This document shows, in pieces, positions 745-17,447 of a stretch of 17,572 nt of DNA (the stretch's first letter is position 1; each line of letters starts with the position of its first letter). The stretch comes from Pseudobdellovibrionaceae bacterium (GTDB taxonomy: Bacteria > Bdellovibrionota > Bdellovibrionia > Bdellovibrionales > Bdellovibrionaceae): assembly GCA_041288045.1 (NCBI GenBank), contig JBGGMM010000163.1:1-17572 (forward strand), given 5' to 3'. A program made the translations under genes and the position numbers. The notes beneath the pieces are model-generated. The model was not told where the DNA came from. It saw nothing but the letters and a program-made list of their open reading frames with translations, and ran no database searches.

Positions 745-1568
745 CGGGTTCCGGAGCTCACAAACCGAAAGTTCATCGGTTTGTCGGCGTCTCATTGTCA
801 GGTGGAAAATCCGACAAGGCCTGTGTTGCTGTGGTCGAGTACTTTCCAGAGCACCAGAAAATTTTTCTCGGCAGGCTTTACGAAAAAATCAAAACCGAAG
901 AGTTCATTTCTGCCGATTTGAAAATCCACGAAATCATCAGTCAATTTCACCAAGACATCGAGTACTTGGCATTTGACGTTCCTTTGACATTGCCCACTTG
1001 TGTGCATTGTCAGCTCAATTGCCCAGGCTATGAAACCTGTTCAGAAACCGAAATGGAATGGCTGCGCCAATTCTACTCGGAAGTGAACAAACAAAAAAAA
1101 CCAAAGAAAATGTTCACTCCCTATACGCAGAGAGCGGTTGAGGCCTACGTCGCTCACGGCCTCGAAGAACACTTTGAAATCCATCACGCTCTGGGATCCA
1201 ATCTGGCTCCCTTGACCGTCAGGGCCCAGTTCATCAAAAGGCGCTTAAAAATCCCAGCAGTCGAAGTTTTCCCAAAACTTTCTGTCTGGAGAATCGGCCA
1301 AGAACTGAAAGTGTCCAAAGTCCATTTGAAATACCACAAGCACTCAGTCGGCGGCGACGAAAGCCGAAAAATTTTCCTCCAAGCCCTGTGTGACAAAAAA
1401 GAAATTTTCGTCTACCAACAAGATTTCAAATCCATGGTCGAAAACAACCACGCCTTCGAAGCTTTCATCTGCGCCTACACAGCCTACCTCAAATTCATCA
1501 AAGCCACAGAACCAAAGCCGGCCGGCTTTCCACGAAAAGAAGCCTGGATCGAATTTCCGAAGATTTGA
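687..1568 (+). CDS. DUF429-like RNase H-fold protein with Cys-rich insertion
   Basis: Motifs FVGVSLSG, AFDVPLTLP, VEVFP and HAFEAFICAYTAY match the DUF429 pattern (GID/IDAPL/EVYP/DA). Insertion CVHCQLNCPGYETC. Start chosen at ATG 687 (purine-rich GGGAAAGGG upstream), overlapping the kinase 3' end; the true start is uncertain. Confidence 0.75.
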   Translation: MSGGRISSPRRTTSRKAPVTGSGAHKPKVHRFVGVSLSGGKSDKACVAVVEYFPEHQKIFLGRLYEKIKTEEFISADLKIHEIISQFHQDIEYLAFDVPLTLPTCVHCQLNCPGYETCSETEMEWLRQFYSEVNKQKKPKKMFTPYTQRAVEAYVAHGLEEHFEIHHALGSNLAPLTVRAQFIKRRLKIPAVEVFPKLSVWRIGQELKVSKVHLKYHKHSVGGDESRKIFLQALCDKKEIFVYQQDFKSMVENNHAFEAFICAYTAYLKFIKATEPKPAGFPRKEAWIEFPKI

Positions 1569-1600
1569 GTTGAGCTGAGAGCCCTTCAATTGGAACACCA

Positions 1601-1619
1601 CAACACCATCGTGGTGTTG
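1601..1619. repeat. Perfect inverted repeat/hairpin next to the transposase remnant (possible REP or IS200-type end)
   Basis: CAACACCA-TCG-TGGTGTTG, 8-bp stem; preceded by a direct copy AACACCA at 1594-1600. Confidence 0.5.
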
Positions 1620-1633
1620 CTCTGCGCGATTTG

Positions 1634-1928
1634 CTACGCAGTCGGTTTCTTTTCTGGTCTGAAAATCAGACCTCGAGTTTCCATCTGATTGATGATGAAG
1701 TAATTGAGAACCGATTTGAAATCCCGACCCCATGAAATAATGCGAGTGAAGGGGCGAAGGTCAAAAAGTGTTTCAAGAGAGGTTTTCGCGCTCTTTGATC
1801 TTGATAATCAAATGAAAGTGAGACCAATTAATAGCAAGCCCATAAACTTTCACATTGAATTTCTGAGCCTGACTGTGAATCAGCTTTTCCAGTGAATGAT
1901 TACCAGGAGAAAAAACTAATTTTTCCGT
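1634..1928 (-). pseudogene. Fragmented HUH/Y1 tyrosine transposase (RAYT / IS200-TnpA-like) remnant
   Basis: Manual translation of the minus strand. 1928-1773 reads TEKLVFSPGNHSLEKLIHSQAQKFNVKVYGLAINWSHFHLIIKIKERENLS* (HUH = HFH, 1820-1812). A shifted frame from ~1783 to 1634 reads TSLETLFDLRPFTRIISWGRDFKSVLNYFIINQMETRGLIFRPEKKPTA* (putative catalytic Tyr at 1702-1700). No proper start; in-frame TAA at 1931-1929. Confidence 0.7.
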
Positions 1929-1943
1929 TTACATTCCTTGCGG

Positions 1944-1968
1944 CTGCGAGAAGGCTTCGCAGTATTTT
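1944..1968. other. Hairpin between Nudix stop and transposase remnant (terminator or element end)
   Basis: CTGCGA(1944-1949)...TCGCAG(1957-1962), followed by TATTTT on the + strand. Confidence 0.35.
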
Positions 1969-1976
1969 AGCCAGCC

Positions 1977-2525
1977 CTAAAACTTGCCAAAATGTCGAAG
2001 CAGCCAAAACACGCAAATCTGCGTCTTCACGTCGGAGATTTCGTGGTTCCAGATTTTGGCTTGGATTTCTTCGAGAGTGAGCTCGACGGTTTCGAGAATT
2101 TCATCGGGGTCGGGGAGTTTGGGTGCTGGCTTCAGGTTTTCAGCCAGATACAGATCGATTCTTTCGTTGGAGTAGCCGATCACTGGGTGAATGTGGGTCA
2201 GAAAAGTGAGCTTGCCGGGTTGAAAGCCAACTTCTTCTTGCAGCTCCCGGGCGGCGGTGATTTCGGTTTTTTCTCCGAGATCGGCTTTGCCAGCGGGGAA
2301 TTCAAGAAAAACTTGGCCGACTGAGTGGCGGTACTGATAGATCATCAAAAATTTTCCATTGTCCAAATGGGGCACGATGGTAGCGGCGCCTGGATGCTTG
2401 ATGTATTCGCGGAAGGATTGATGGCCATTGGGAAGTTCGACTTCGTCTCTCCAGATTTTCAGGAAGCGGCCTTGAAAAACCACAGCCGAGGAGAGGACTT
2501 TTTCGATCAAATTCTTTTTCGTCAT
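1977..2525 (-). CDS. Nudix hydrolase, ADP-ribose pyrophosphatase (NudF-like)
   Basis: Complete Nudix box GKADLGEKTEITAARELQEEVG; N-terminal VFQGRFLKIWRDEVELPNG...REYIKHPGA, QYR and ISDVKT, typical of ADPRases. Confidence 0.9.
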   Translation of the reverse strand: MTKKNLIEKVLSSAVVFQGRFLKIWRDEVELPNGHQSFREYIKHPGAATIVPHLDNGKFLMIYQYRHSVGQVFLEFPAGKADLGEKTEITAARELQEEVGFQPGKLTFLTHIHPVIGYSNERIDLYLAENLKPAPKLPDPDEILETVELTLEEIQAKIWNHEISDVKTQICVFWLLRHFGKF

Positions 2526-2532
2526 TCCATCA

Positions 2533-2560
2533 AGACTAGCACATCCAAAGTCCGGGTCTA
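2533..2560 (-). promoter_or_regulatory. Sigma70-type extended -10 promoter, probably leaderless, for the Nudix gene
   Basis: Minus strand TAGACC-16 nt-(TGC)TAGTCT (2538-2533), then 7 nt to ATG 2525. Confidence 0.5.
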
Positions 2561-2629
2561 CGAGTCTTTTGTCGAAACTTGCGGAAGATTTTTGTCCTCC
2601 GTCAGCTGGGAAAATGTAAGATAAAAAGG

Positions 2630-3562
2630 ATGCGAATCTTTCTTTTTTTTCTTTTTCTGATCCCGCTTTTCCCGGACGCCGCGCGAGCTGAAGTTGAACA
2701 CACTTTGCTCAGACGAATTGCCGTTTTTCCGATTGCTGAAGCCAATTTATCAAATAATGAAGAAGCCTGGTGGCAAATGCGTGAACTTCTGACGAAGGAT
2801 CAAAGATTTTTCGTCGCCAGCAGGCGCTTTATGATCAATCGCGGGGTTTTTCAACCGCGCAAAACCCTCAAACCTGCGGATGCCATCATTCTTGGAAAAA
2901 TTTTGGATGCCCAGGCGTTGGTTGTGACTTTCCTGAAAGAGCGGACTTTGCAGATGCGAGTCTATGAAGGTGAAAATGGTTATTTGCTTTGGGAAGGGGA
3001 TGCCGAATTTCATCCTGCTTTGCCCATCAATGACCAACTCGTGCGAATGAGCACACAATTGATGAATGCCTTTATCCTGGCAGTTCCCTATCAAGCTTTT
3101 CAGGTCACCGACCAAGTGATCGGCAAAGCCGTCTATGAAGAAGACGGAAAAAGCTTTGCGCAAATTTACATCGGTGCCAACTCAAAAATTGAAGTGGGGG
3201 ACACGGCTCAGTGGATTCAAGTGGTCGGAGATGTGAATGAAGCTTTTTTCAGCAGCACCACCAAAGTGACAGTGACTGCCGAGGGCCGAGTTCAATCTTT
3301 GAAGGGCGACCGAGCTGTGGTCGAAATTCAAAAAATGTCAGACCCTTCGCAATTGAAAGAAAATTCGCTGGTTCGGTTCCCAAAGGAACTCAATCGACTG
3401 AAAGAACTTTATTCGGGTGGAGAGAAAGATTCAAATCTGGCCCCAGAATACCTGTCCTCAGAACTAAAAAACTCTGCCGAATTTTCAAAAGATCATCAGT
3501 CCACTTCGACATTCATGTTATGGGTGACAAGCCTGGCCGGCATTCTGCTCTTGGCTTTCTGA
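2630..3562 (+). CDS. Exported protein with CsgG/FlgT-like alpha-beta domain, FlgT_C-like beta domain and C-terminal membrane anchor
   Basis: Start ATG 2630 gives signal peptide MRIFLFFLFLIPLFPDAARA. RIAVFP...QRFFVASR...AIILGKILDAQALVV...MRVYEGENGYLLW resembles the CsgG/FlgT fold; IYIGANSKIEVGD...GRVQSLKGDRAVVEI resembles FlgT_C; ends in hydrophobic FMLWVTSLAGILLLAF. The CDS is solid; the fold call is pattern-based. Confidence 0.7.
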   Translation: MRIFLFFLFLIPLFPDAARAEVEHTLLRRIAVFPIAEANLSNNEEAWWQMRELLTKDQRFFVASRRFMINRGVFQPRKTLKPADAIILGKILDAQALVVTFLKERTLQMRVYEGENGYLLWEGDAEFHPALPINDQLVRMSTQLMNAFILAVPYQAFQVTDQVIGKAVYEEDGKSFAQIYIGANSKIEVGDTAQWIQVVGDVNEAFFSSTTKVTVTAEGRVQSLKGDRAVVEIQKMSDPSQLKENSLVRFPKELNRLKELYSGGEKDSNLAPEYLSSELKNSAEFSKDHQSTSTFMLWVTSLAGILLLAF

Positions 3563-4681
3563 GCGAATTTTTGGAAGAGGTCTGAAAATCTCTTTCAATT
3601 CCGGTACCTGCAGCGGCGTTTTTTCATAGGAAGAGATCCAAGACTCAGGTGTTTCCATGCAAAGAAAAACTTTCCAAGCCGGATCTTTCGCTTTCAAGCC
3701 GTGGACAACGAAATCAAACATTTCTTTGCGAAGGTTTTGGTCGTAGCGAAGCTTTCCGCCTTCACTTTGAAACATTTCTGCCGAAGTCACCCAGCTGCTC
3801 ATGCCGAAACGCTCTCGCATCAAATGTCTTTGCTCTGGCTGAAAGCGAAGGGCTCCCACTGAAACCACATGCACTTCCGAAGGCCGAAAGCGGGCGTGAA
3901 TTTCATCAATCAGGCTCTGATAGCCCTGCTGCCAACCCGAATGATAGATCAAGGGATCAATGTGAAAAGCAACTTGAAAGCCGCGGTCCGCACATTTGCG
4001 AGCCGCCTTCAAACGGGCTTCAAAGCTGGCAGTGCCATGTTCTTCTCGGGAAATCACTTCCGGAGCATTGATGGACCAGCTGACCACGACATTTCCCGCA
4101 TGCTCGCAGTCCAAGAACTGATCGACTTTATCGGACTTGGTCTTAAATTCCAAAGTCCACTTGGGAAATTTTTTGAAAAATGCGATGAGCTTTCTTGAAT
4201 GCAAGCTGATTTCATCCAAGCTCAAGCTGTCGATCACTTCGCCAGTCCCTACGCGGTAGGGAAGGTCCGGATGAGTTTCAGCCATGTCCTCGAGCTCTTT
4301 CAGAGCCTGATCAATATTTGAGTACATCTGCATAGTGGGAGTATTGAGATAACTTTGCAAATAGCAGTAAGAGCAATTCATATTGCACTGCTGACCCAAG
4401 TTCAAAACATAATAATTGCAGCAAGTGAGAACTTTTTTCTGACTGGCTCCCGGGCAACGTTTGAAGAAATGACCTTCAAAGGGTTTCACATAGAGAAGCC
4501 GTTTGCTGCGATCAAATTGCTCAGCAGACAAAGGCCCTTTGTTGGAAAGGGGAGGACCCAAAACAAATTGAATCTTCTCGGCTGGAAAAATCTGCAGAAC
4601 TCTCTGCGCGAGTTCTGAATCCCGACTTTTCTCATCGATAAAGATTTTTTCAAAATGTTGAACAATCTCGGGAGAAATCAT
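3518..4681 (-). CDS. Spore photoproduct lyase-family radical SAM protein
   Basis: CNMNCSYCYL radical SAM motif with the SPL YCY tyrosines; downstream EFKTKSD, WSINAPEVISREEHGTAS, RLKAA...GFQVAFHIDPLIYHSGWQQGY align with SplB. The 3' end overlaps the convergent gene by 45 nt. Confidence 0.88.
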   Translation of the reverse strand: MISPEIVQHFEKIFIDEKSRDSELAQRVLQIFPAEKIQFVLGPPLSNKGPLSAEQFDRSKRLLYVKPFEGHFFKRCPGASQKKVLTCCNYYVLNLGQQCNMNCSYCYLQSYLNTPTMQMYSNIDQALKELEDMAETHPDLPYRVGTGEVIDSLSLDEISLHSRKLIAFFKKFPKWTLEFKTKSDKVDQFLDCEHAGNVVVSWSINAPEVISREEHGTASFEARLKAARKCADRGFQVAFHIDPLIYHSGWQQGYQSLIDEIHARFRPSEVHVVSVGALRFQPEQRHLMRERFGMSSWVTSAEMFQSEGGKLRYDQNLRKEMFDFVVHGLKAKDPAWKVFLCMETPESWISSYEKTPLQVPELKEIFRPLPKIRSESQEQNAGQACHP

Positions 4682-5538
4682 CAGTGTTTAGTTCCCGTCG
4701 CCTCTTGTTCGAGCAGATCTTGAACTTTATTGAGAGACTGAAGATATTTTTTTAAATCCGAAGGCTGAGAAACAAATAATTTCAGTTCGATTCCGGTTTT
4801 GTCGCCTTGACGAATCCATTTGGCGTGACTGGTGCCAGGCCAGGGAAGAGAGGTCATTTTCTCTTCTTGCGCTTGATCGCGTTTGAATGTTTCAGGGTAA
4901 CGAAGCTGCTTGAGCGCGGCAATCCAGGCTTCTCCGGGCGATTGCCCATTGTTCACAAAGCTCAAAAGTTTTTGGCAAGTGAGATTTTCAACCGTTTGTC
5001 CCTGCAGAATCAATTCAATTCCCAGCTCAAGCGCTTTCACTCCAAGAGATTTGGAAAGCTGAAAATGAAGGATGTCATGAAAAAGCTGCTTGAGCTCCAG
5101 TCCATCGGCAGACAGCAAAGGAGCCAAATCCTGAGGTGACACTTTCTTTTCCGTGCACCATTTTTGAAAGCCCACCGGAGTTTTCACCAAGCGATCGGCA
5201 ATTTGGAAAAACTGATCATTGGCCTGCCAGCCGAATTTTTGCACAAGTGCAGCCAACGGAAACCAAGAAAGAAATTTTGCTTTTTGCGAAAGCCTCGCCA
5301 TTTCGGCAAAGCTGAGATCAAAATACAAAGAGCGAAACAAAGTGCAAATTCCTTCGACGTCATTTTCTTCGAGCTGATGATTAAAGACAAACTCCCGCGA
5401 AAATCCTGCCAGTACAAAAGAGTTCACAGCCACTGCAGGAAGTCCCTCGGGCCAAGACTGAAGCGGGGAAAAATCCAAGCTTTTATCGCATTGCGACATC
5501 GAGCAGAGTTGGGGAGGCTTCAGGTCAGACTTTGACAT
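4681..5538 (-). CDS. Hypothetical protein, possibly degenerate ParB-like partner of the SPL-like enzyme
   Basis: 285-aa ORF whose TGA overlaps the radical SAM ATG (TGATG, 4683-4679). VLAGFSR resembles the ParB GxxR box; C-terminal LKQLRYP...LPWP...IELKLFVSQPSDL. Confidence 0.7.
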   Translation of the reverse strand: MSKSDLKPPQLCSMSQCDKSLDFSPLQSWPEGLPAVAVNSFVLAGFSREFVFNHQLEENDVEGICTLFRSLYFDLSFAEMARLSQKAKFLSWFPLAALVQKFGWQANDQFFQIADRLVKTPVGFQKWCTEKKVSPQDLAPLLSADGLELKQLFHDILHFQLSKSLGVKALELGIELILQGQTVENLTCQKLLSFVNNGQSPGEAWIAALKQLRYPETFKRDQAQEEKMTSLPWPGTSHAKWIRQGDKTGIELKLFVSQPSDLKKYLQSLNKVQDLLEQEATGTKH

Positions 5539-5563
5539 AGGAGGATCCGGGTATCATGAAGGG

Positions 5564-5592
5564 TGGTCAGACGCAATCCAAAGTGGTAGCTT
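5564..5592 (+). promoter_or_regulatory. Extended -10 promoter, probably leaderless, for the HAD phosphatase
   Basis: TGGTCA(5564-5569)-17 nt-(TGG)TAGCTT(5587-5592), then 7 nt to ATG 5600; no SD. Confidence 0.5.
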
Positions 5593-5599
5593 TTCCTTC

Positions 5600-6676
5600 A
5601 TGGCAGATTGGCGCGATCGCAGTCAAATCACAGGAGATGTGGTCTTTTTTCGCTACGTCACTCAGGGAGTCGAAAAAAACATCGACGAAGTCTTCGTGTG
5701 GGATTTGGATAAAACCTATCTCGACACCAGTATCGATTCTTTGAGCGCTCTTTTAAAAACCGCTATTGAGCGGGCCCTCAATAAGAAAAATGTTCCAGGC
5801 ACCAGCACACTTTTGCAAGTCATTGCTCAGCGCTGGCAGGAGATCAAAGGCCAAAGCCGATTTCCACTTTATTTTATTTCAGCTTCGCCTCCGCAAATGG
5901 AAGCTCGTATCGCTGAAAAATTCACGATCGACAACATTCGCCCTTTTGGCTGCTTTTACAAAGACAACCTCAAGAACCTCACTCCCAAAAGACTGTGGCG
6001 ATTGAACAAACAAGTGGGCTACAAAATCCAAGCTCTGTTGATGCTGAGAATGAAACTGCGAGAAGATGTCAGGCAAGTCTTCTGGGGAGATGACAGCGAA
6101 TCCGATGCGGTCATTTACAATTTGTACTCAGACATTTGCGCCAGACGAATGGGAGCTCAAGATCTCAGAAATGTACTAAAGGGTTTTGCCGTCACCAATG
6201 ATCAGATCGATGAAATTCTTCTCCTGCAATCGCAAGTGCCAGAGCACGATCCGGTTGAAAAAATCTACATCAACCTCGCCGTCGACACAGATCCCGATTA
6301 CTACTTGAAATTCGGCAGAAGAACTCTACCGACCTACAACACTTTTCAAGTGGCCTGCGATCTGTTTCAAGATCAGCGAATTTCCGTCGAAGCAGTCCAC
6401 ACTGTCGCCCAAGACATGATCTTTAATTACGGCTTCGCTCCCGAAGAACTGGTGCGGAGCTTCGACGAACTCATCCGCCGTCACGTCCTCGGAGAATCCG
6501 CAGTTCAAAGGCTCACAGCCTATTTCATCGACAAAGGAATTTTCCCCGGCAACTTCACCCCCAGCATCCCCGCAGTCCGAGAAACCAAAGTCATCGAAGG
6601 AAAAGTCTTCGAGCTCGAAGGCCATTTCGAGCCTTGGGTTCAGATGCGGGTGGATTACCTGCATGATTACCGGTGA
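5600..6676 (+). CDS. HAD-superfamily phosphatase (App1/DUF2183/LNS2-like)
   Basis: HAD motif I WDLDKT, motif II ISASP, motif III Lys in GYKI, motif IV WGDDSESD. Confidence 0.8.
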   Translation: MADWRDRSQITGDVVFFRYVTQGVEKNIDEVFVWDLDKTYLDTSIDSLSALLKTAIERALNKKNVPGTSTLLQVIAQRWQEIKGQSRFPLYFISASPPQMEARIAEKFTIDNIRPFGCFYKDNLKNLTPKRLWRLNKQVGYKIQALLMLRMKLREDVRQVFWGDDSESDAVIYNLYSDICARRMGAQDLRNVLKGFAVTNDQIDEILLLQSQVPEHDPVEKIYINLAVDTDPDYYLKFGRRTLPTYNTFQVACDLFQDQRISVEAVHTVAQDMIFNYGFAPEELVRSFDELIRRHVLGESAVQRLTAYFIDKGIFPGNFTPSIPAVRETKVIEGKVFELEGHFEPWVQMRVDYLHDYR

Positions 6677-6694
6677 TCCCGCAAGCGAAAGGCA

Positions 6695-8911
6695 TCACTT
6701 CCCCAGTCCTAAAATCGCCTCGCGCTTGCCGACAATCCAAATCAGATCCTTGGCTTGAATCAGAAAGCTAGATTCAGGGTTGAGGATTCGTTTTCCGGCG
6801 CGTTCAATCCCAACCACAATCCCGTGAGTCAGCTCGCGAATTTGGCTATCGCGAATGGTTTTTCCTAGCAACGGAGATTGGTCGGAAACTAAAATGGGTT
6901 CCAATTGAATATCTTCTTCATGCTCATGGTTTCCTTCTTCGCTTTCGAGTAGAGAAGAGACTTCGCTGATCTGTTGATCGGTTCCCAAGACCAAGACTTG
7001 GTCTCCAGGGAAAAGAAAATCACCGCGTTGCGCGGGGAGGATGCTTTTTTTCCCTCGAAGAATCATCACGACTGTGACGCCGAAGTGCTCGCGCAGTTTG
7101 GCTTCGGCCAAGGTCTTTCCGACAACTGATGACTGCGGGGAAATTTTGACTTGTGCCAAGCTTGTGTTCCAAGGAGCAAGGCGGTGAGCTTCTGCCGATT
7201 CTGTTGTCGAGGGTTCAGTTTCGGTCTCGGACAGATTTTTTCGAAAGCGCATTTCCATTTTTTGATAAATGAAAGTCGCCGATTGATGTCCGAAGTAAAC
7301 TAAGACGGGCAGAAGAAAAAGAACCAGCAATCGAGAAGAGGGATTGCCAGGCAATAAGAGAATGGCAGTCAAAATCAATATAAATCCTAAAATTCCGCGA
7401 AGGGCGGTGGTCGTGACGAGAAAGGGATCCATGGCCATGGGACTTTTCATCATTCGAATCAACCGGCGAATTCCAATGATTTCCCAAATAAAGGGAAAAG
7501 CCAGAGTCAATGTGAGCATGGAAAAGAGGGTGGGTCCGAAAAGCTCGTCATTGAGGATATGGGGGAAGATGGGGTAAACCCAATTTTTCATACTGAAAAC
7601 AATGGCCAGAACCAAAACTGAATTGAAGAGGAGCACAAAGCCACTGTCCTGCAGAAACTGGCGAACAAAGCCTGTTGATTTTTTGTTTGGATCCGATTGT
7701 TGGTAGCGCACAAGCTTCTCAAGAAAAGAAGCCGGAAGCTTTTGGCTGAGCCAATCACTGACGGGATCCGAAGCTTTGATCAGATAGGGAGTGGTGAAAG
7801 TCGTAATCGCTGAAACCGCAACGGCAATGGGGTAGAGAAAATCACTGGTCACTTTCAACGAAAGCCCCAAAGTCGCAATGATAAAAGAAAATTCCCCAAT
7901 CTGTGCCAGACTGAACCCGGCTTGCACGGAATGCCTGAGGCTTCGTCCTGCCAGCAGAGCCCCAAGACTCGTGCTAAAGATTTTCCCGAAAATTGTGAGT
8001 GCCGTCAGCAGCGTGATGACTTTCCAATGCTCAAGCAGGGACCTGGGCTCAATCATCATCCCCACCGAGACAAAAAAGATAGCGCCAAAAAGATTCTTCA
8101 CAGGCATTAATGTGTGCTCAACCCTTCGTCCTTCGCGAGTCTCCGCAATCAAAGAGCCCATGATGAAAGCTCCCAATGCCGGCGAAAAATTCAGCTGGGT
8201 CGCAATCATCACCATTCCCAGACAAAGTCCAATGCAGACAATGAGAAGTGTTTCTTCATTGAGAAATTTCCGTAGAGTTTTAAACAGATTGGGCAAAATA
8301 TAAATCCCAAACAAAAACCAAAGCACCATGAAAAAAGGCAACTTCAAGCTGGTCAAGGCCAGCTCGGCCCCCGCACTCTCACTGGCGCTCGCCACTGTAG
8401 AAAGCAGCACCATGAGAAAAATGGCGACCAGATCTTCGACTATCAAGGCGGCAAAAACCAAAGAGACAAAAGCTCTTTTTTTCATTCCCAATTCTTCCAG
8501 AGCCCGAATGATGATCGTCGTTGAAGAGATGGCAAGAACCCCGCCCAGAAACAGACTGTCCATCATCGACCAACCCAGCAGCTGCCCCGTCAAATAGCCG
8601 AGAGCCATCATAAAGACGATTTCAAAAACAGCAGTGATCGAAGCGCTCGGCCCCACTTTCAAAAGCTTTCGAAAGCTGAACTCAAGCCCCAAACTAAAAA
8701 GCAAAAAGATGACGCCGATCTCGGCCCAGATCTTGATGCCCTCAACGTCAATGACCGTTGGGTGAAAGCCAACATGTGGACTGACAAGAAATCCCGCCAC
8801 CAAATAACCCAGAACAACCGGCTGTTTGAGATAGCGGAACAACACAGTAGTCACTGCCGCTGTGATCAGAATAATTCCTAAATCGTGAATGAGCTGTGGA
8901 ACATGAACCAT
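6695..8911 (-). CDS. CPA2-family cation:proton antiporter with two C-terminal RCK_C (TrkA-C) domains
   Basis: Many TM segments with KQPVVLGYLVAG, AEIGVIFLLFSLGLEF, ISSTTII, LIVEDL, FFVSVGM, LAQIGEFSFIIA; two RCK_C repeats (SSVVGKTLAEAKLRE..GVTVVMILRG; SPLLGKTIRDSQIRE..GIVVGIERAG). SD GGGAGG at 8927-8922. Confidence 0.93.
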   Translation of the reverse strand: MVHVPQLIHDLGIILITAAVTTVLFRYLKQPVVLGYLVAGFLVSPHVGFHPTVIDVEGIKIWAEIGVIFLLFSLGLEFSFRKLLKVGPSASITAVFEIVFMMALGYLTGQLLGWSMMDSLFLGGVLAISSTTIIIRALEELGMKKRAFVSLVFAALIVEDLVAIFLMVLLSTVASASESAGAELALTSLKLPFFMVLWFLFGIYILPNLFKTLRKFLNEETLLIVCIGLCLGMVMIATQLNFSPALGAFIMGSLIAETREGRRVEHTLMPVKNLFGAIFFVSVGMMIEPRSLLEHWKVITLLTALTIFGKIFSTSLGALLAGRSLRHSVQAGFSLAQIGEFSFIIATLGLSLKVTSDFLYPIAVAVSAITTFTTPYLIKASDPVSDWLSQKLPASFLEKLVRYQQSDPNKKSTGFVRQFLQDSGFVLLFNSVLVLAIVFSMKNWVYPIFPHILNDELFGPTLFSMLTLTLAFPFIWEIIGIRRLIRMMKSPMAMDPFLVTTTALRGILGFILILTAILLLPGNPSSRLLVLFLLPVLVYFGHQSATFIYQKMEMRFRKNLSETETEPSTTESAEAHRLAPWNTSLAQVKISPQSSVVGKTLAEAKLREHFGVTVVMILRGKKSILPAQRGDFLFPGDQVLVLGTDQQISEVSSLLESEEGNHEHEEDIQLEPILVSDQSPLLGKTIRDSQIRELTHGIVVGIERAGKRILNPESSFLIQAKDLIWIVGKREAILGLGK

Positions 8912-8918
8912 AGAGAGA

Positions 8919-8989
8919 CATCCTCCCGAAGAAAAAATGGAACTGATTTTTCAAAAAAAGCTGAAAGCTCAGCCCAATTTCGGAGGATG
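8919..8989 (-). promoter_or_regulatory. SD-sequestering stem (translational attenuator) for the antiporter
   Basis: mRNA CAUCCUCCGAA (8989-8979, codons H-P-P-K of the leader ORF) pairs with UUCGGGAGGAUG (8930-8919), which contains the antiporter SD; 11 bp with one bulged G. Confidence 0.7.
8953..8973 (-). terminator. Intrinsic terminator-like hairpin overlapping the leader ORF stop codon
   Basis: mRNA GCUGA-GCUU-UCAGC (8973-8960) followed directly by U7 (8959-8953); TGA at 8971-8969 lies in the 5' arm. The stem is short. Confidence 0.5.
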
Positions 8990-9259
8990 GAAAATCGAAG
9001 GCGGAATGCCATCCGAAATTCCGAGAAATTCAAATAGAGATGGTTTGAGAAAAATCAATTCTTGAGAGACAAAAAGAAAAAAAGAGGCCGCTTCACAAGC
9101 GTGCACAGGCGCCTGGTCCGCGATCGGTGGCAGAGAATCTGATGAAGGCAAAGACTCTTCCTGAGCTGCCGGGGCCGAAGCGCGAATGAAATTCGAGGAA
9201 GGATCCGAAAGCTCAAAGGCCAATAGAAATAAAATGAAGATGCTGATCCATCTTGCCAT
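8969..9259 (-). CDS. Small exported leader protein with C-terminal IFHPP motif (candidate arrest peptide/uORF)
   Basis: 96 aa; N-terminal hydrophobic MARWISIFILFLLAF, low-complexity linker, HAC, ending GIPPSIFHPPKLG; near-consensus promoter 7 nt upstream of the ATG. Confidence 0.7.
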   Translation of the reverse strand: MARWISIFILFLLAFELSDPSSNFIRASAPAAQEESLPSSDSLPPIADQAPVHACEAASFFLFVSQELIFLKPSLFEFLGISDGIPPSIFHPPKLG

Positions 9260-9266
9260 GATTTGG

Positions 9267-9295
9267 AGCCTAACAGCTCACCCTTGCAGACTCAA
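9267..9295 (-). promoter_or_regulatory. Sigma70 promoter for a leaderless leader ORF-antiporter transcript
   Basis: TTGAGT(9295-9290)-17 nt-(TGT)TAGGCT(9272-9267), then 7 nt to ATG 9259. Confidence 0.7.
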
Positions 9296-9326
9296 TTGTT
9301 TGATACCAAGGATTGCGAGATCAGTT

Positions 9327-9476
9327 TTAAGCGAGGCTTGGGCCAAAAACCAGAGCAATGGCAATGGTGATGATCAGTGGAATGGCGGCATACATAAAAA
9401 ATGGCAACATCTCAGTGCGGACCGCTTGTTCTTTTTCGTCTTTTGACAAATTTTTGTAAGTATTTTCGTTGGCCAT
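9327..9476 (-). CDS. Small single-pass membrane protein (49 aa), not in ORF track
   Basis: GGAGGA-AACC-ATG; MANENTYKNLSKDEKEQAVRTEMLPFFMYAAIPLIITIAIALVFGPSLA*; has its own promoter upstream. Confidence 0.8.
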   Translation of the reverse strand: MANENTYKNLSKDEKEQAVRTEMLPFFMYAAIPLIITIAIALVFGPSLA

Positions 9477-9505
9477 GGTTTCCTCCGCAGACTGTCTCTA
9501 GAGAA

Positions 9506-9534
9506 ATCCTAACAATCCCTTATTCAAACTTCAA
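9506..9534 (-). promoter_or_regulatory. Sigma70 promoter for the 49-aa gene
   Basis: TTGAAG(9534-9529)-17 nt-(TGT)TAGGAT(9511-9506). Confidence 0.65.
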
Positions 9535-10323
9535 CGGGAATAACGTCGAGATTGAAGGCCCTTTGAACGAGCGGAACTCAATGCGACGAAGCACTTCTAA
9601 CAGGCATTTTTTAAATTCGTCATTGGTCATTTGGCTGGCAGTGACTTCGGCGACGCTGAGCTTGCCATTGTTTTCAATTGTGAAGCTCAAAGCCACATTG
9701 CCCTTGGCCGAGGGCTCTTTCTGCAGAAGCTGAGTGTAGCATTTAAAAAAACTGCTGCGATGATTGTTCATCACAGTCCCAATTTCATCTTCCGTGAGAC
9801 CCAGATGCACAGGTCCTGGATTGGGAAGATCATCCACTGGTTTCATCGGCTCGACTGCCATTTGGGCAAGAGGGGAGCTGTTGTAATCGGTGGCAGAAAC
9901 TCTCTCTCCATTTTTTGCAATGACAAGCTCGCCTTCGCGGCCAAAGTTTTCGACTCGAACTTCGCCGCGTTTCACAATCATCAGGACTCGAAAGGATTCC
10001 TGGTCTTCAATGCGCTCAAGTGTCACCAAAGTGTTGTTGGAAAGGCGAACTCGGTAAGCGCTTTCGAAAGAAAGAAGCGCTTCGCCAGTTTCCATGGTCT
10101 CAACCGAATCCAAATTGTAAACATTGATTTTACGATCGACATTTTCTTTTTGAGTGTAGCCAGATCTGAGAACCGAAACCTTGCCACTTTCTCTTTCAAT
10201 TCGAGCCAAACGAATTTCCTGCACGCTAGGTTTGGGCGCAAAAAAAGAAAAGTAGGTCGAGACGCCAATCAGCACCAGTCCCAGGAACAAAAATCCGAAG
10301 ACCACTTGGCTCTTTTCAGGCAT
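9520..10323 (-). CDS. Membrane-anchored protein with FecR-like beta region and AgmX/PglI (TonB-C-like) C-terminal domain
   Basis: N-terminal TM; GKVSVLR...LDSVET...EALLSF...VRLSNNTLVTL is FecR-like; FFKCYTQLLQKEPSAKGNVALSFTIENNGK...FKKCLLEVLRRIEF...FPLKFE matches the AgmX/PglI C-domain with its Cys pair. Confidence 0.8.
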   Translation of the reverse strand: MPEKSQVVFGFLFLGLVLIGVSTYFSFFAPKPSVQEIRLARIERESGKVSVLRSGYTQKENVDRKINVYNLDSVETMETGEALLSFESAYRVRLSNNTLVTLERIEDQESFRVLMIVKRGEVRVENFGREGELVIAKNGERVSATDYNSSPLAQMAVEPMKPVDDLPNPGPVHLGLTEDEIGTVMNNHRSSFFKCYTQLLQKEPSAKGNVALSFTIENNGKLSVAEVTASQMTNDEFKKCLLEVLRRIEFRSFKGPSISTLFPLKFE

Positions 10324-10329
10324 GCAGTC

Positions 10330-10707
10330 TTACTTTTTAGGAGCTTGTGTTGTCGTTGTGGTTTCCGCGGCAGGAGCAGGAGTGGTTGCGGCAGCTGCGG
10401 CATCACCTGAAACTGCCGGTGCAGCCGTTTCAACCGGAGCTGCTGGCAAGTTTTTCAGATTGTCGACAACCGATGATCGTTTGTTAGCAAAAGTCGCAAG
10501 CAAAATGCTGGTCAGTGCGAAAATCACAGCCGCAATGCGAGTGACTTTTTGAGCTAGTGTCGCGCCGCCGGTCGCACCGAGGATGGAATTCGAACCACCA
10601 CCACCAAAAGCTCCACCCATTCCGCCGCCCTTCGAGTCCTGCAAGAGAACCAGAGCGATCAAAGCCAAAGCCGTGATTATATGAATAATGGCGATAAACG
10701 TTTCCAT
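10330..10707 (-). CDS. secG: Preprotein translocase subunit SecG
   Basis: LIALVLLQDSKGGGMGGAFGGGGSNSILG...LAQKVTRIAAVIFALTSILL; GGAGG SD before ATG 10707 (the track start at 10767 is too far upstream); Ala/Thr/Pro-rich tail. Confidence 0.95.
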   Translation of the reverse strand: METFIAIIHIITALALIALVLLQDSKGGGMGGAFGGGGSNSILGATGGATLAQKVTRIAAVIFALTSILLATFANKRSSVVDNLKNLPAAPVETAAPAVSGDAAAAATTPAPAAETTTTTQAPKK

Positions 10708-10767
10708 CGTGATGAAGCCTCCATGAAATGACGGATCAATATAGAAAAAACCAGACCTCAAAGTCAC

Positions 10768-10797
10768 TTGAAATCCAGAGTCCCTCCAGGGGATAAT
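10768..10797 (+). promoter_or_regulatory. Putative sigma70 promoter, divergent from secG
   Basis: TTGAAA(10768-10773)-18 nt-GATAAT(10792-10797); SD GGAGGA at 10808-10813 before ATG 10818. Confidence 0.45.
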
Positions 10798-10817
10798 GCA
10801 AAATGTCGGAGGATTCC

Positions 10818-11741
10818 ATGGCCCCTTTCTTAGCTTTGATCTTCACTTTGGCGGTCACAGGTTCGAGCTTTGCCAAAGACAAACTGAGCCTTGAGAAAAT
10901 GACTTCAGGAATTCAAAAATCCGATGAAATTGCCGCTCTTTACAAGCTCACAGCCGATTTGCAAAAAGACCCGGCAAAAGAGCTGAAACCCTTGCTTCAA
11001 GCCAATCAAAAGCCACTTGCGCAGTTGCAAAAAGAATTTCTGGAATCCGCCAATTTCATTCGTGGTGAAATTGAAAGTGAAAAAGTCCTCAATCAACTGA
11101 TGGCCTGCCTGCAGCTTTCCATGCTCAAAAGTAGAGCTCACAGCTTTCAATCCGAGTGGCCACAAATGCAAAATGAATTCTCCAGCTGGTTTCTGTTTGC
11201 CGCTGATTTCCCCTACGAGGAAAGCTCCCTGGTGGGACTTCGTACCAGTGGAGTCATCCGCTCGCTCTTGCTCGATGAGCTTGAAAAAATCCAAACTCGT
11301 TTTGCTGCCCAATTGGCCTCACAGCCGACTTTTCGCCAGTGGTTTTTGAAAGTCAGAGCGCCTTGGCCTGTGGACCGTGTCCTCATTAGTGAAGCCAAGC
11401 GACTTCTCAAGCCGCCGATGATGTCCGTGGCTAACGCTGCCGCTCGGGCTTTTCAAAAAAATCCCTATCAAACCAGTCAACAGGCACTTGAGAAAATCAA
11501 AGGCGGGCAGAGTGAAGGGGCTGAGCTCTTGAAGCAAATCTGGCGAGAAGCTGACATTCAGCTGATGAAAACAGAAATCAATCGCATTGGAAAACTGAAA
11601 TTGCGTCTGGCGAAAGCTGAGTTTGAGAATGTGAATAAAAAAGCGCCAGATTCTGTGCAGACTCTTCTCAACGCAGGCCTCCTAGATCAGGCACCTGTCG
11701 ACTATTTCACTGGCAAGGCCCTCGATTTGACTTCTTTGTAA
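10818..11741 (+). CDS. Secreted, mostly helical hypothetical protein
   Basis: SD plus ATG 10818 gives signal peptide MAPFLALIFTLAVTGSSFA; C-terminal KAPDSVQTLLNAGLLDQAPVDYFTG resembles the GspG/pilin-type tail. Confidence 0.8.
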   Translation: MAPFLALIFTLAVTGSSFAKDKLSLEKMTSGIQKSDEIAALYKLTADLQKDPAKELKPLLQANQKPLAQLQKEFLESANFIRGEIESEKVLNQLMACLQLSMLKSRAHSFQSEWPQMQNEFSSWFLFAADFPYEESSLVGLRTSGVIRSLLLDELEKIQTRFAAQLASQPTFRQWFLKVRAPWPVDRVLISEAKRLLKPPMMSVANAAARAFQKNPYQTSQQALEKIKGGQSEGAELLKQIWREADIQLMKTEINRIGKLKLRLAKAEFENVNKKAPDSVQTLLNAGLLDQAPVDYFTGKALDLTSL

Positions 11742-11761
11742 AAACAAAGCACAAGTTTCCC

Positions 11762-12400
11762 ATGCCATTTATTGTGTTTGAGGGCTTGGACGGCTCTGGG
11801 AAAAGTTCATTGATGACGGCGCTGGAAACCGAGCTGAAGAGCAAGGGGCTTCCTGTCGTTCGAACTCGTGAACCCGGAGGCACTGAACTCGGGGATCAAA
11901 TTCGCGAAATGATTCTCAACAAAGCAGGACCAGCTCCCACAGCCCGCACAGAGCTTCTTCTCTATGAAGCCAGTCGCTCTCAACACGTCGATCAAGTGAT
12001 CAAGCCGGCTTTGCAAAAAAGCGCTTGGGTTCTCTGCGATCGCTTTTCAGCAAGCTCCATTGCTTTTCAAGCCGGAGGGCGAGAGATTGCCGAAGAGTGG
12101 GTGGAAAGACTGAATGAATTTGCAACTGATGGTTTGTCGGCTGATCTTACTGTGCTTTTGGATCTTTCCGTCGAGGAAAGCCGTCGTCGTCGCAATCAGC
12201 GCCATGCTCATGGTGGGGAAAGAGAAGACAGAATCGAATCAGAAGCGGATTCTTTTCATGAGCGAGTGAGAAAATCATTTCTCTCCCAAGCTGGGAAATT
12301 CCCACACCGCTGGCTGGTTCTGAATGCCGGTGAAACTCCAGAAGCTCTCTTGAGTCAAACTCTCCAGCACATTCGGAGTCTGCGATGGCTCAACTCTTAA
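11762..12400 (+). CDS. tmk: Thymidylate kinase
   Basis: FIVFEGLDGSGKS P-loop, TREPGGT, ELLLYEASRSQH, VLCDRF. Confidence 0.96.
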   Translation: MPFIVFEGLDGSGKSSLMTALETELKSKGLPVVRTREPGGTELGDQIREMILNKAGPAPTARTELLLYEASRSQHVDQVIKPALQKSAWVLCDRFSASSIAFQAGGREIAEEWVERLNEFATDGLSADLTVLLDLSVEESRRRRNQRHAHGGEREDRIESEADSFHERVRKSFLSQAGKFPHRWLVLNAGETPEALLSQTLQHIRSLRWLNS

Positions 12401-13383
12401 AAGGAGTTCTGGACCATCAGGACATCATCCAGCGCTTTCTCAATTCCTACAAAGAAGGCCGACTGCCGCACACTTTTCTTTTTGTCGGCCCGGCCGGCGT
12501 GGGCCGAAAAACAGTGGCCATTGCTCTCGCCCAGAACTTGCTCTGCGAAAAATCGGTCCCAGCTTGCGGACTTTGTGGGAGCTGCCTGCGAGTGAGCAAC
12601 TGGGCCAGCGCTCTGAATTCAAAAAAAAATTCCGCCACTGGTCATGCCACTGGCACGGAATCACTGTGGCTCATTCAACCAGAAAAAAATCAAATCCGCT
12701 TGGATCAAGCCCATCAGATTTTGGATTTTTTGAGCTTGCGAACTCTTTCTAAAAACCGAGTGGTGATCATCGATGGCGCCGAGACTCTCAATCCACAAGC
12801 TGCCAATTCTCTGTTGAAATCTCTGGAAGAGCCGCCTGTGGGGACCTATTTTTTTCTGATTGCTCCCAGTGCAGCTCACGTGCTTTCGACTTTGAAATCG
12901 CGGGCGCAGGTGGTGGCTTTTTCTCCTCTGCAGCCAAGTGATATGAAAAAGAAAGTGTCAGCTCCTGAATGGGCGCTTCGTGCCAGTCAGGGCAGCTTTG
13001 AAAGGCTTTCGCAATTGTTGGAAAAAGACGAGCTGGAAATTCGTCAAAGCGCTCTGGCCTGGTTGCAGGATTGGGCCAGTGGCGAGGGACAAGGCTATCT
13101 GAAATCAGAAAACCGGGAACTTGTGCGCGATCGATCCGTGGCTCGCAGTCTTGCTCATCATGTGTCCTGGCTGCTTCGGGATGCTATGTATTTGAAACTG
13201 GGAGCTTCCGAGAAGGTTTTGAATTCAGATCAAATCCCAGTGCTTGAAAAACTCAATCAGTCTCTTTCAGTGGATCATTTGTTGAGAGCTTGTGAAAAAT
13301 CACTTTGGATTGAGCAAAAGCTGGATCAAAACCAGGATTCTTCTCTCGTCTTTGAGCAGTTCTGGATTGAGACCAGGCCTTAA
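12385..13383 (+). CDS. holB: DNA polymerase III delta' subunit
   Basis: LPHTFLFVGPAGVGRK, Zn-module cysteines C..ACGLCGSC, AANSLLKSLEEPP, TLKSRAQ; canonical tmk-holB-tatD order. Confidence 0.9.
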   Translation: MAQLLKGVLDHQDIIQRFLNSYKEGRLPHTFLFVGPAGVGRKTVAIALAQNLLCEKSVPACGLCGSCLRVSNWASALNSKKNSATGHATGTESLWLIQPEKNQIRLDQAHQILDFLSLRTLSKNRVVIIDGAETLNPQAANSLLKSLEEPPVGTYFFLIAPSAAHVLSTLKSRAQVVAFSPLQPSDMKKKVSAPEWALRASQGSFERLSQLLEKDELEIRQSALAWLQDWASGEGQGYLKSENRELVRDRSVARSLAHHVSWLLRDAMYLKLGASEKVLNSDQIPVLEKLNQSLSVDHLLRACEKSLWIEQKLDQNQDSSLVFEQFWIETRP

Positions 13384-13395
13384 GAGTGATACTTT
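13367..13395 (+). promoter_or_regulatory. Internal leaderless promoter for tatD
   Basis: TTGAGA(13367-13372)-17 nt-(TGA)TACTTT(13390-13395), then 6 nt to ATG 13402. Confidence 0.6.
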
Positions 13396-13401
13396 CAGAA
13401 T

Positions 13402-14172
13402 ATGTCTTGGATTGATGTTCATGCCCATTTGGATATGCTGGAGGACTCTCCAGAAGTGACTTTGCAAAAAGCCAAAGCCGCCGGCGTCAGTAAAATCGTC
13501 ACCATCGGCACAGAGCCTTCGGATCACGAATTCGTTTTAAAAACGGCCAAGCAATTTTATCCCGATATTTACTGCACTTTGGGCGTTCATCCTCACCAAG
13601 GCATGCAGTGGAAAGAGGAAATCGGCGATTGGATCGAAAAGCATTTGCCAGAAAAAGAAGTCATCGCAGTTGGCGAAATCGGCCTTGATTACTATTACAA
13701 CCAATCTCCAGTGGAAGAACAGAAGCTGGCTTTTCGTCGCCAGTTGGAAATCGCCCGCAAGCACCGAATGCCTGTGCAGATTCACACTCGCGAGGCAGAG
13801 CAGGACACAGTTGAAATTCTGAAAGAGTTCAAAGGCGAAGTCGGAGGATTGATTCACTGCTTTACAAGCTCAGCTTGGCTGGCCCAAGAGGTTCTGGATT
13901 TGGGATTTAACATTTCCTTTAGCGGTGTTGTGACCTTTAAAAATGCTGAAAGTTTACGCGAAACCTGCAAAATGGTGCCTTTAAATCGCCTGCATGTGGA
14001 AACCGACGCCCCATTCCTGGCGCCAGTGCCCCAGCGCGGGAAGAAAAACACACCGGCTTTTGTGGTTCATACGGCCTCTTTGGTGGCCCAGCTCAAAGGT
14101 GTCTCCGAAGAAGAACTTGCTGCCGCCACCAACGAAAATGCGCGTCAACTCTTCCCGAAAATCGTCTGGTAA
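13402..14172 (+). CDS. tatD: TatD-family deoxyribonuclease (YcfH-like)
   Basis: IDVHAHL, GVHPH, VGEIGLDYY, IHTREA, IHCF, VETDAPFLAP. Confidence 0.93.
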   Translation: MSWIDVHAHLDMLEDSPEVTLQKAKAAGVSKIVTIGTEPSDHEFVLKTAKQFYPDIYCTLGVHPHQGMQWKEEIGDWIEKHLPEKEVIAVGEIGLDYYYNQSPVEEQKLAFRRQLEIARKHRMPVQIHTREAEQDTVEILKEFKGEVGGLIHCFTSSAWLAQEVLDLGFNISFSGVVTFKNAESLRETCKMVPLNRLHVETDAPFLAPVPQRGKKNTPAFVVHTASLVAQLKGVSEEELAAATNENARQLFPKIVW

Positions 14173-14236
14173 GCCATGATCCTAAGCTTTAAGAGACTTC
14201 CTCGAGAGGTCCAACTCTTTTGCAAAAGGATTTTCA

Positions 14237-15241
14237 ATGGCAAAACTCAAAGTCGGTATCAATGGTTTTGGTCGCATCGGTCGCGTTTTGTTTCGCGCCG
14301 GATTTGAACAATTCGAAGTCGTCGGCATCAACAACATGGACAGTGTCGAGGGTGCAGCCCATCTTCTGAAGTACGACAGTGCTCACGGCATTTTTAAACA
14401 CGATGTCTCTTTCGATGAAAAAAGCATCATCGTCAATGGCAAGAAAATTCCAGTTTCCAAATCGAAAAATCCAGCTGAAATCCCGTGGAAGCAATGGGGA
14501 GCCGATATCATTCTTGAGTGCACAGGCGCTTTTAAGAAAAAAGAAGATTTCCAGCTGCATTTGCAAGCGGGAGCGAAGCGGGTCATGGTCTCGGCACCAG
14601 CTGAAGGCGCAGATTTGACCATCGTTTACGGAATCAATCATGAAACTTACGATCCCAGCAAGCACACCATCGTCAGTAACGCCTCTTGCACGACCAACTG
14701 TCTGGCGCCTGTGGCGAAAGTCATGCATGAAGCTTTCGGAGTCGAAAGTGGAATGATGACCACCATTCACTCTTACACCAACGATCAAAGAATCCTCGAT
14801 GCTCCTCATAGTGATTTGCGACGAGCTCGTTCAGCAGCTGTGAGTATGATTCCGACCACCACGGGAGCTGCGAAAGCTGTGGGATTGGTTCTCCCGGAGC
14901 TGAAAGGCAAAATCGACGGCACTTCGATCCGAGTTCCTACTCCGAATGTGAGCTTGGTGGATTTCACTTTCAATTCAGCTCGTGATCTCAGCATTGAAGC
15001 CATCAACGAAGCTTTGAAGAAGGCCTCTCAAGGAGCCTTGAAAGGGGTTTTGGCGGTTGAAGAAAATGAATTGGTGAGTGTCGATTTCAATGGCAACCCT
15101 TACTCTTCCATCGTCGATCTTCCCTGCACCATGGTGATTGGCAAACGTCTTGGAAAAGTGATGTCTTGGTATGACAACGAAACAGGCTTTTCAAATCGCA
15201 TGGTGGATTTGGCCCATTACATGGAAAAACGAGGTCTTTAA
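14237..15241 (+). CDS. gap: Type I glyceraldehyde-3-phosphate dehydrogenase
   Basis: GINGFGRIGR, SNASCTTNCLAP, WYDNETGFSNR; SD AAGGA. Confidence 0.98.
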   Translation: MAKLKVGINGFGRIGRVLFRAGFEQFEVVGINNMDSVEGAAHLLKYDSAHGIFKHDVSFDEKSIIVNGKKIPVSKSKNPAEIPWKQWGADIILECTGAFKKKEDFQLHLQAGAKRVMVSAPAEGADLTIVYGINHETYDPSKHTIVSNASCTTNCLAPVAKVMHEAFGVESGMMTTIHSYTNDQRILDAPHSDLRRARSAAVSMIPTTTGAAKAVGLVLPELKGKIDGTSIRVPTPNVSLVDFTFNSARDLSIEAINEALKKASQGALKGVLAVEENELVSVDFNGNPYSSIVDLPCTMVIGKRLGKVMSWYDNETGFSNRMVDLAHYMEKRGL

Positions 15242-17192: not shown

Positions 17193-17211
17193 CGCGAATT
17201 CTTAAATTGGA

Positions 17212-17235
17212 GAAAAAGAGTGTTAGCTCTTTTTC
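17212..17235. terminator. Inverted repeat between convergent tpiA and the small ORF (possible bidirectional terminator)
   Basis: GAAAAAGAG-TGTTAG-CTCTTTTTC, perfect 9-bp AT-rich stem. Confidence 0.45.
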
Positions 17236-17447
17236 AAATTGATTTTCTTGTTTGTTTTTCGGTCCGCGATCTTCATGGTGTTTTTGCTCTTCGCGGTTGG
17301 TTTTGATTCAAGCTCGGCAGCCGTGATTTCTTTGATGGCTTTCGGCTGAGAAGCAAGATTTCCACCCATTGGAGCTGACAACATCCCCACCAGAATCAAA
17401 GCTGAAACAGCAAAAAACAATCGCACAGCTTCATTCCAAATTGTCAT
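17223..17447 (-). CDS. Small hypothetical exported/membrane protein with basic tail
   Basis: 74 aa; hydrophobic LFFAVSALILVGML followed by a Lys-rich C-terminus; fills an otherwise empty gap; weak SD (GGGGG). Confidence 0.55.
   Translation of the reverse strand: MTIWNEAVRLFFAVSALILVGMLSAPMGGNLASQPKAIKEITAAELESKPTAKSKNTMKIADRKTNKKINLKKS

Follow-up and report, generated by a model that had tools for sequence, protein, structure and literature searches.

A family of short leaders ending in Pro-Pro in Bdellovibrionota, and its candidate role as a translational attenuator of a cation:proton antiporter

The stretch of DNA analyzed here (the window) comprises 17,572 nucleotides (nt) of a Pseudobdellovibrionaceae bacterium (assembly GCA_041288045.1, contig JBGGMM010000163.1, positions 1 to 17,572). 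On its minus strand, a 96-amino-acid (aa) open reading frame (ORF), which we call the leader, is followed after a 57-nt gap by a gene for a 738-aa CPA2-type cation:proton antiporter (Table 1). An earlier sequence-only reading had taken this ORF for a ribosome-stalling peptide controlling the antiporter, and the elements on which it relied, namely, the ORF, its C-terminus PPSIFHPPKLG, the gap, and the downstream gene, all lie where it placed them. Its naming of that gene also holds: PF00999 combined with TrkA_C domains identifies a CPA2 protein with RCK_C, although the product falls below the NCBIfam cut-offs (best matches, TIGR00932, YbaL, MagA, and KefB/C) and scores just 114-150 bits against equivalog cut-offs of 700-804 for KefB, KefC, and YbaL. 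Two DNA sequencing runs of one study span the stretch without differences, and no RNA run was listed as containing it. An Rfam scan of positions 8500-9700 returned nothing at E<=1, so no known riboswitch was recognized there.

Table 1. Features of the leader-antiporter locus, in order of transcription
Feature	Positions	Strand	Basis
Promoter-like TTGAGT-17 nt-(TG)TAGGCT, 7 nt ahead of the leader ATG; leaderless-type start	9267..9295	-	Sequence; inferred
96-aa leader ORF (Bdellovibrionota family described in the text)	8969..9259	-	Genome and profile searches
N-terminal membrane anchor (helix 2-18) and motif E16-L-S-D-P-S-S-N-F24-I-R26	9182..9259	-	AlphaFold helix; 30-sequence alignment
His53-Ala-Cys55, 39 and 37 residues before Pro92, with acidic linker ahead	9095..9103	-	Cys/His spacing in 30 members
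Putative pause site at the I-F-H-P-P codons, with CAUCCUCC as anti-Shine-Dalgarno strand	8981..8995	-	Pro-Pro invariance; pairing probabilities; footprint gain
Weak terminator-like hairpin and U run, holding the leader stop codon and competing with the longer fold	8952..8975	-	Fold; 4/19 loci
Antiporter Shine-Dalgarno region GGGAGGAUG, sequestered in the predicted fold	8919..8930	-	Minimum-free-energy fold; pair probabilities
CPA2-type cation:proton antiporter, 738 aa	6695..8911	-	PF00999 (E 6e-56) and PF02080 twice (two TrkA_C [RCK_C] domains)

Single-sequence protein searches with the leader return only the leader itself or one weak relative. A search of 182 genomes from the host's taxonomic family, however, yielded three full-length relatives (E ~1e-5), and profile rounds together with one metagenome pattern scan produced an alignment of 30 members. 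Mean column identity is 27%, yet E16, R26, P92, and P93 are invariant and F24 is nearly so. On this comparative basis, the leader belongs to a real, conserved protein family. Its members, which are assigned to Bdellovibrionales, Oligoflexia, or Bdellovibrionota, are patchily distributed: within the order, 8 of 384 genomes contain one at E<=1e-6, and none of the 7 genus-mates does; other taxonomic families gave 6 of 75 genomes in one and 1 of 34 in a third. DNA pattern searches gave 2 metagenome loci and 23 genome loci, three of which are known family members and the rest chance matches; no second copy was found in the leader's own genome, either by search or, as judged by eye, among 64 hydrophobic ORFs ending in Pro-Pro (PP). 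None of the 26 members scanned matches a Pfam or NCBIfam family, and at E<=1 Pfam offers nothing for the window leader and 25 relatives beyond four unrelated weak singletons. The tree of leader proteins is poorly resolved, and because the members are kin, counts of the features they share overstate their independence.

The leader begins with a basic N-terminus and a hydrophobic helix, followed directly by Glu and lacking Ala-x-Ala at the helix end; the AlphaFold model (predicted template modeling score of 0.28) contains this helix and leaves the remainder without secondary structure. Behind the anchor lies a family motif, ELxDPSTNFIR, that carries the invariant Glu and Arg, and from this Glu to the PP the distance varies from 72 to 112 residues. 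A Cys or His nonetheless stands 37-40 residues ahead of the PP in 26 of the 30 leaders (shuffle mean of 6.5 and maximum of 15 over 10,000 shuffles), represented in the window by H53-A54-C55, the His-Ala-Cys site reported previously. Upstream of this position, at -41 to -55 from the PP, net charge is negative in 27/30 leaders, and a moderately hydrophobic stretch of 35 residues connects the Cys/His to the tail. The tails read [S/P/G/D]IF[Q/H]PPK (mostly SIFQPPK), xxRPP, or FTPP, with the PP (residues 92-93 in the window) ending 1-7 residues before the stop. Pro-Pro is present in 30/30 members, but the IFHPP motif to which attention had been drawn is a local variant of IF[Q/R/H]PP, the family having mostly QPP or RPP.

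The promoter proposed ahead of the leader exists as TTGAGT-17-TAGGCT with an extended -10 TG, but "near-consensus" overstates it: only 7 of 12 consensus bases are present, and the site falls under the scan threshold. Its layout recurs across the family, with a TTG..16-18..xAxxxT site 5-9 nt ahead of the start codon at 13 of the 19 leader loci for which DNA is available, compared with 191/1890 long ORFs and 444/15,158 random start triplets of the genome. This layout supports leaderless transcription, and the leader mRNA is probably leaderless; the literature searched yielded nothing on leaderless mRNA in Bdellovibrio.

The evidence for control of the downstream gene comes from RNA folding. In the minimum-free-energy fold, CAUCCUCC (positions 8989-8982, the H91-P92-P93 codons) pairs with GGAGGAUG (8926-8919) over the Shine-Dalgarno (SD) region of the antiporter. 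The fold has an energy of -38.1 kcal/mol (z of -2.99), equaled by 2 of 200 shuffles, and its eight core pairs have probabilities of 0.73-1.0; the pairing earlier ascribed to the H-P-P-K codons stands in this core, but its GAA/UUC extension is weak (0.35-0.38). The antiporter SD of the window (-10.3 kcal/mol) is the strongest among 30 antiporter loci, of which 7 reach -6. As a side observation, an out-of-frame AUG at 8921-8919 on the minus strand, inside the sequestered SD strand and without an SD of its own, opens a 57-codon frame across the antiporter start.

To compare loci, we used the footprint gain, i.e., how much less energy is needed to open the next ribosome-binding site once a ribosome footprint covers the PP codons. 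It is at least 2 kcal/mol in 10 of the 16 leader loci folded, where intergenic gaps measure 47-96 nt; among 202 ordinary gene pairs from the genome, 14 attain this value (p 6e-6), and 5 reach the 4.1 kcal/mol calculated for the window. Because Pro codons complement G-rich SDs anyway, tails were also swapped between loci and recoded. Native tails, each folded with its own intergenic region, outperform swapped ones (3.5 versus 1.7; P 0.0005, or P 0.0001 in the 13 loci without close kin) as well as synonymously recoded ones (3.5 versus 2.07; P 0.002). Four next-gene starts had been picked with the SD in view, and in the 10 loci that are left after these four hand-chosen starts and two of three close kin are removed (L077 being kept), the P value is 0.009. 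The stem also shows compensating changes, CCUCC/GGAGG in the window against CCACC/GGUGG in L122. Together, these comparisons support the view that the Pro-Pro region sequesters the downstream SD beyond chance. A fixed anti-SD in which the first Pro codon is always CCU was rejected, this codon being found at 8 of 19 loci.

The check proposed earlier, for leaders ahead of homologous antiporters, came out negative. Among 50 other matches listed for the antiporter, 29 loci were inspected, and in none of them does a leader ORF ending in PP lie upstream of the antiporter homologue (two of the loci have <320 nt upstream). The antiporter fares better as a target when approached from the leaders, since 6 of the 19 leader loci head a CPA2 gene, a strong enrichment that lies far above chance given just 2 PF00999 genes in the 2.89 Mb of the window's own genome; the other 13 head unrelated genes. 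The pairing is direct in the window's genome (G000) and in G569, both with TrkA_C-type antiporters, whereas one small gene intervenes in G061, G111, and L077 (MORN_2 proteins) and in G263 (an Ion_trans_2 channel-like protein), all with TrkA_N-type antiporters. In the antiporter tree, the G569 protein falls in a supported clade with three that lack leaders, apart from the G000 protein, and the TrkA_N type is separate, which suggests three or more pairings of leader and antiporter, repeated loss of the leader being a possible alternative. Four genus-mates were examined downstream of the 49-aa ORF that lies upstream of the leader in the window: in three, a convergent APP1-like gene comes next, 37-911 nt away, and in the fourth other genes follow. 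Leader and antiporter thus form a cassette inserted at a variable site.

The 13 loci without a CPA2 gene include three with MORN then proBA and two with S-adenosylmethionine (AdoMet) decarboxylase-LysE-BpsA polyamine genes; the single cases are an ICMT-like region, a GMC oxidoreductase, an SRPBCC protein, a response regulator, three short ORFs, and one without a clear gene. Several of the genes behind leaders merit separate mention. The set of AdoMet decarboxylase, LysE exporter, and BpsA_C protein occurs in two distant genomes (L133:2282-4249 in G589 and L134:1854-3728 in G129); BpsA, a branched-chain polyamine synthase, is known from thermophiles. Between leader and antiporter in G263 (L052:908-1252) lies a gene for a channel-like protein of 115 aa with two helices (Ion_trans_2, E 2e-5), whose pore region lacks the usual K+ filter signature. 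In G566 (L073/L081), short imperfect tandem repeats behind the leader show up as repeating peptides in several frames, with no clear gene before the contig ends.

Among characterized systems, the leader resembles CutF of Rhodobacter capsulatus (DUF2946; cutF-cutO), an exported upstream ORF (uORF) with a Pro-rich C-terminus, a fixed ligand-to-Pro spacing, and an intergenic stem shielding the next SD (10.1101/2022.11.11.516240; 10.1101/2025.02.05.636593), in which control depends on the elongation factor EF-P (10.1101/2025.02.05.636593). Both are uORFs of <150 aa with a C-terminal PP, a short intergenic stem over the next SD, and a fixed distance from site to Pro; in the terms of the rule set for CutF-like genes (10.1101/2022.11.11.516240), the window leader has 96 aa, a PP within its last 15 residues, and a next gene on the same strand well within 1,000 nt, and the shielding stem is present in silico. 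That rule set also asks for an N-terminal Sec signal peptide, of which the leader shows the basic N-terminus and hydrophobic helix but no Ala-x-Ala. The two part ways in that the leader family lacks CxxxC and has a single Cys/His at 37-40 residues (45 in CutF), an extra invariant Glu..Arg motif, non-copper targets, including antiporters, and no Pfam match. Searching with the PF11162 profile, as had been suggested, gave no match to DUF2946, and neither form of the DUF2946 metal site (CxxC/CxxxC or His-rich) is present; the absence of CxxC noted earlier for the window leader extends to all but 2 of the 30 members. CruR of Bordetella pertussis, another DUF2946 protein, has an export signal and, like the leader, is the first gene of its operon and has a C-terminal PP near the stop and conserved spacing, but the CxxC, RAPP, 162-nt gap, and Rho-dependent control described for it (PMC9426467) were not found for the leader. 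In placing the Cys/His at a constant distance from the PP while the linker varies, the family follows the same spacing logic as that reported for CruR and CutF.

RAPP and RGPP uORFs are small exported ORFs that, like the leaders, end in PP and have antiporters among their downstream classes (PMC12992588). The Arg of RAP is irreplaceable in ApcA, ApdA, and ApdP (PMC12992588), yet Arg at -2 with Ala or Gly at -1 occurs in 0 of 30 leaders; since these have IF[Q/H/R]PP, the RAPP census could not have listed them. In the source data of Fig. 4B of that study, the cation:proton antiporter is enriched behind RAPP uORFs (75 RAPP versus 81 AAPP, 3.6-fold, adjusted p 1.7e-12), and, among the 32 of 90 places covered, some rows put RAPP uORFs ahead of antiporters of the K+/H+ and Mrp types, although the main text does not name antiporters. 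The claim that no example of such a pairing had been described must thus be given up, as the class is on record. The word "Bdellovibrio" has no matches in the main text and 10 supplement files of that study (one file covered in part), and Bdellovibrio, QPP, and HPP are not named in the main text of PMC10987492. No paper on the leader family, or on a tested leader ahead of an antiporter, was found in the literature searched, which did not extend to the large list in the CutF study. In SecM, MifM, and VemP, arrest is released by pulling during export, and the stalled ribosome opens the next SD (10.1101/2025.02.05.636593; PMC12992588); the leaders bear no sequence likeness to these peptides, and their targets are not Sec or YidC genes.

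A further resemblance is to CzcI, DUF6660, and DUF6769 proteins. The Atlas feature similarity of the leader to these (0.91-0.93, with 84-115 of 256 features shared) is a lead only, and their Pfam profiles match none of 26 members, in a Pfam version that may lack PF28244. The C-terminal 35 columns of the leader, however, align by hhalign (85%) with a His/Cys-rich leader ending in IFQPP. Such CzcI-like leaders ending in IF[Q/R]PP share the layout and the C-terminal 35 residues of the family but have a Cys/His cluster at -36 to -50 and lack the Glu..Arg motif; the leader family keeps one Cys/His at about -38 and is acidic at -41 to -45 (D/E of 0.25 versus 0.02 in His-rich leaders). Within Bdellovibrionota, we also observed, as weak matches, His/Cys-rich leaders ending in [IL][FY][RQK]PP, located mostly before genes that resemble TolC and CusA (L069, L075 with two in tandem, L076, L091, L092, L094, L096, L098, L099, L100, L102, L104, L058, and L153). 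They are probably CzcI/CutF-like metal sensors, and the predicted SD switch is present in 7 of the 12 such loci tested.

We consider it probable that the leader acts in cis as a translational attenuator, in the manner of CutF and SecM, and switches the antiporter on through ribosome stalling. Under this model, a leaderless mRNA would begin at the leader ATG, and the N-terminal anchor would target the nascent chain to the Sec translocon. A ribosome dwelling at I-F-H-P-P would cover CAUCCUCC, as well as the 5' arm of the weak terminator, freeing the antiporter SD for translation; a pulling force on the chain would end the pause, the stem would re-form, and the antiporter would be turned off. We infer the pause from the invariance, position, and spacing of the Pro-Pro, and translation, export, and the direction of control likewise belong to the model. 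Several observations weigh against it. Without the Arg that is irreplaceable in RAPP peptides, IFHPP may give only a weaker, EF-P-sensitive pause. Six of the 16 loci folded have no predicted switch, including L068 in G569, the other direct CPA2-TrkA_C pairing, where the gain is 0.1, and three of the 19 loci had been omitted because the next start is unclear. Taken alone, the window is not significant (6 of 25 recoded tails equal the native one), as Pro codons complement any G-rich SD, and an earlier, simpler duplex test on a core set with one wrong and one arguable start gave P 0.08.

The loci that lack the switch would fit a leader that is a small membrane protein with a job of its own, e.g., as an accessory or in assembly, with a stem that does no more than couple translation of the next gene to the passing ribosome, in the absence of a regulated pause. 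The Glu..Phe-Ile-Arg motif behind the anchor, which is as invariant as the PP and has no counterpart in the accessible reports on CutF or CruR, points the same way. Against such a protein, the leader is predicted to be unstructured past its anchor, its conserved positions follow the distance to the C-terminal PP, the downstream genes are mutually unrelated, and in the 13 loci with a promoter-like site the leader is always the first gene behind it; we regard this explanation as unlikely. Still less likely is a mainly transcriptional switch, with SD pairing secondary, in which a paused ribosome keeps the hairpin-U7 terminator from acting (or keeps Rho from doing so, as in CruR). The hairpin at the stop codon is indeed present (8975-8958), with its 5' arm within the footprint of a ribosome on the PP codons, and CruR acts via Rho-dependent termination (PMC9426467). 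The hairpin has only 7 bp, however, including two G-U pairs, and a stability of just -7.5 kcal/mol, with the stop codon in the 5' arm. A hairpin with a U tract occurs at only 4 of 19 leader loci, and at two of these its energy does not reach -5. Termination is therefore not how the family works, and a conserved intrinsic terminator was rejected; terminator-like sites are in any case common in the scanned 4-kb region (12 seen versus 6.4 expected). The gaps, too, are short in comparison with the 162 nt reported for cruR.

Least probable of all, to the point of being hard to credit, is that the leader descends from a metal sensor of the CutF/CzcI type and has decayed into a relic, hitchhiking with various genes but no longer regulating them. 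Measured by its distance, the single Cys/His does line up with the place where the Cys/His cluster of His-rich leaders ends, and the patchy distribution, with no copies among genus-mates, would suit a relic. The invariant residues at a mean identity of ~27%, the intact frames, the promoter layout, and the locus-specific pairing instead indicate ongoing selection.

If the attenuator model is correct, export force or the proton-motive force acting on the acidic linker is the input to which we give the greatest weight, though short of an even chance; metal or thiol chemistry at the His/Cys has a somewhat smaller claim, and a comparable one belongs to the remaining candidates taken together (other cations, an effect of pH on the His, or a partner that binds Glu..Arg). 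The leading input is thus export force or membrane potential, with ligand sensing at H53/C55 a close second. In Escherichia coli, a five-Asp segment ~50 residues from the arrest site feels a pull from the membrane potential (10.1101/310698), and the acidic stretch in the leader, considered with this result, favors an export-force or voltage input that would fit antiporter, channel, and polyamine targets. The leader's charge is smaller than in that experiment, however, and His-rich metal-type leaders are acidic too further up (mean of -1.7 versus -2.5 in the leader family), and an acidic linker is therefore no specific mark of voltage sensing. A more specific proposal, which we hold doubtful, is that the nascent chain senses voltage or pH and matches the expression of its targets (cation:proton antiporters, polyamine genes, and a gene resembling those for K+ channels) to the membrane energy state. 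In this view, a metal-sensing leader lost its Cys/His cluster and gained the Glu..Arg motif together with the acidic stretch, which lies ~41-55 residues from the pause, just where the membrane potential pulls on a chain in the translocon.

What is new here is an unnamed leader family with a non-RAPP, non-CxxC anatomy, a new invariant motif, and repeated capture by antiporters. Exported proline-pause leaders have been shown to sense export defects (the SecM class) or copper (CutF and CruR). The present family keeps the proline-pause layout minus RAPP and the metal cluster and has been joined, apparently on more than one occasion, to cation:proton antiporters from two subfamilies; it resembles copper-sensing leaders that have lost the metal-binding motif and may sense something else, perhaps the membrane energy state. 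For leaders in front of genes outside the Sec system, it offers a compact, testable case of where the releasing force comes from, and it is a candidate for a natural, translation-based sensor of membrane potential or pH. Censuses based on the RAPP or CxxC motifs miss IF[Q/H]PP families. Should the signal prove to be a metal, or the stem to provide plain coupling, the family would be a modest extension of the CutF class; if the voltage or pH reading is true, then, with RAPP leaders ahead of antiporters in other phyla, it would point to a widespread, convergent, and unstudied control of ion and pH homeostasis.

Some observations on the surrounding genome are recorded here. In the second CPA2-TrkA_C antiporter of the same genome (G000:C152:12863-15073, minus strand), the RCK_C region is interrupted by an in-frame TGA, reflecting either a broken gene or an assembly error. 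Upstream of the leader, a 49-aa ORF (9327-9476, minus strand), which specifies a hydrophobic helix at its C-terminus, lies behind a TonB_C-like gene (9520-10323); this arrangement is kept in 4 of 4 genus-mates, and the ORF is absent from the corresponding place in one genome of another genus. The remaining neighbors, at 3518-4681 (minus strand), 5600-6676 (plus strand), and 10330-17192, form an ordinary housekeeping context that includes a radical-SAM-like protein containing CxxxCxxC, a phosphatase of the APP1 type, and, named by resemblance, secG-like, tmk-holB-tatD-like, and gap-pgk-tpi-like genes.

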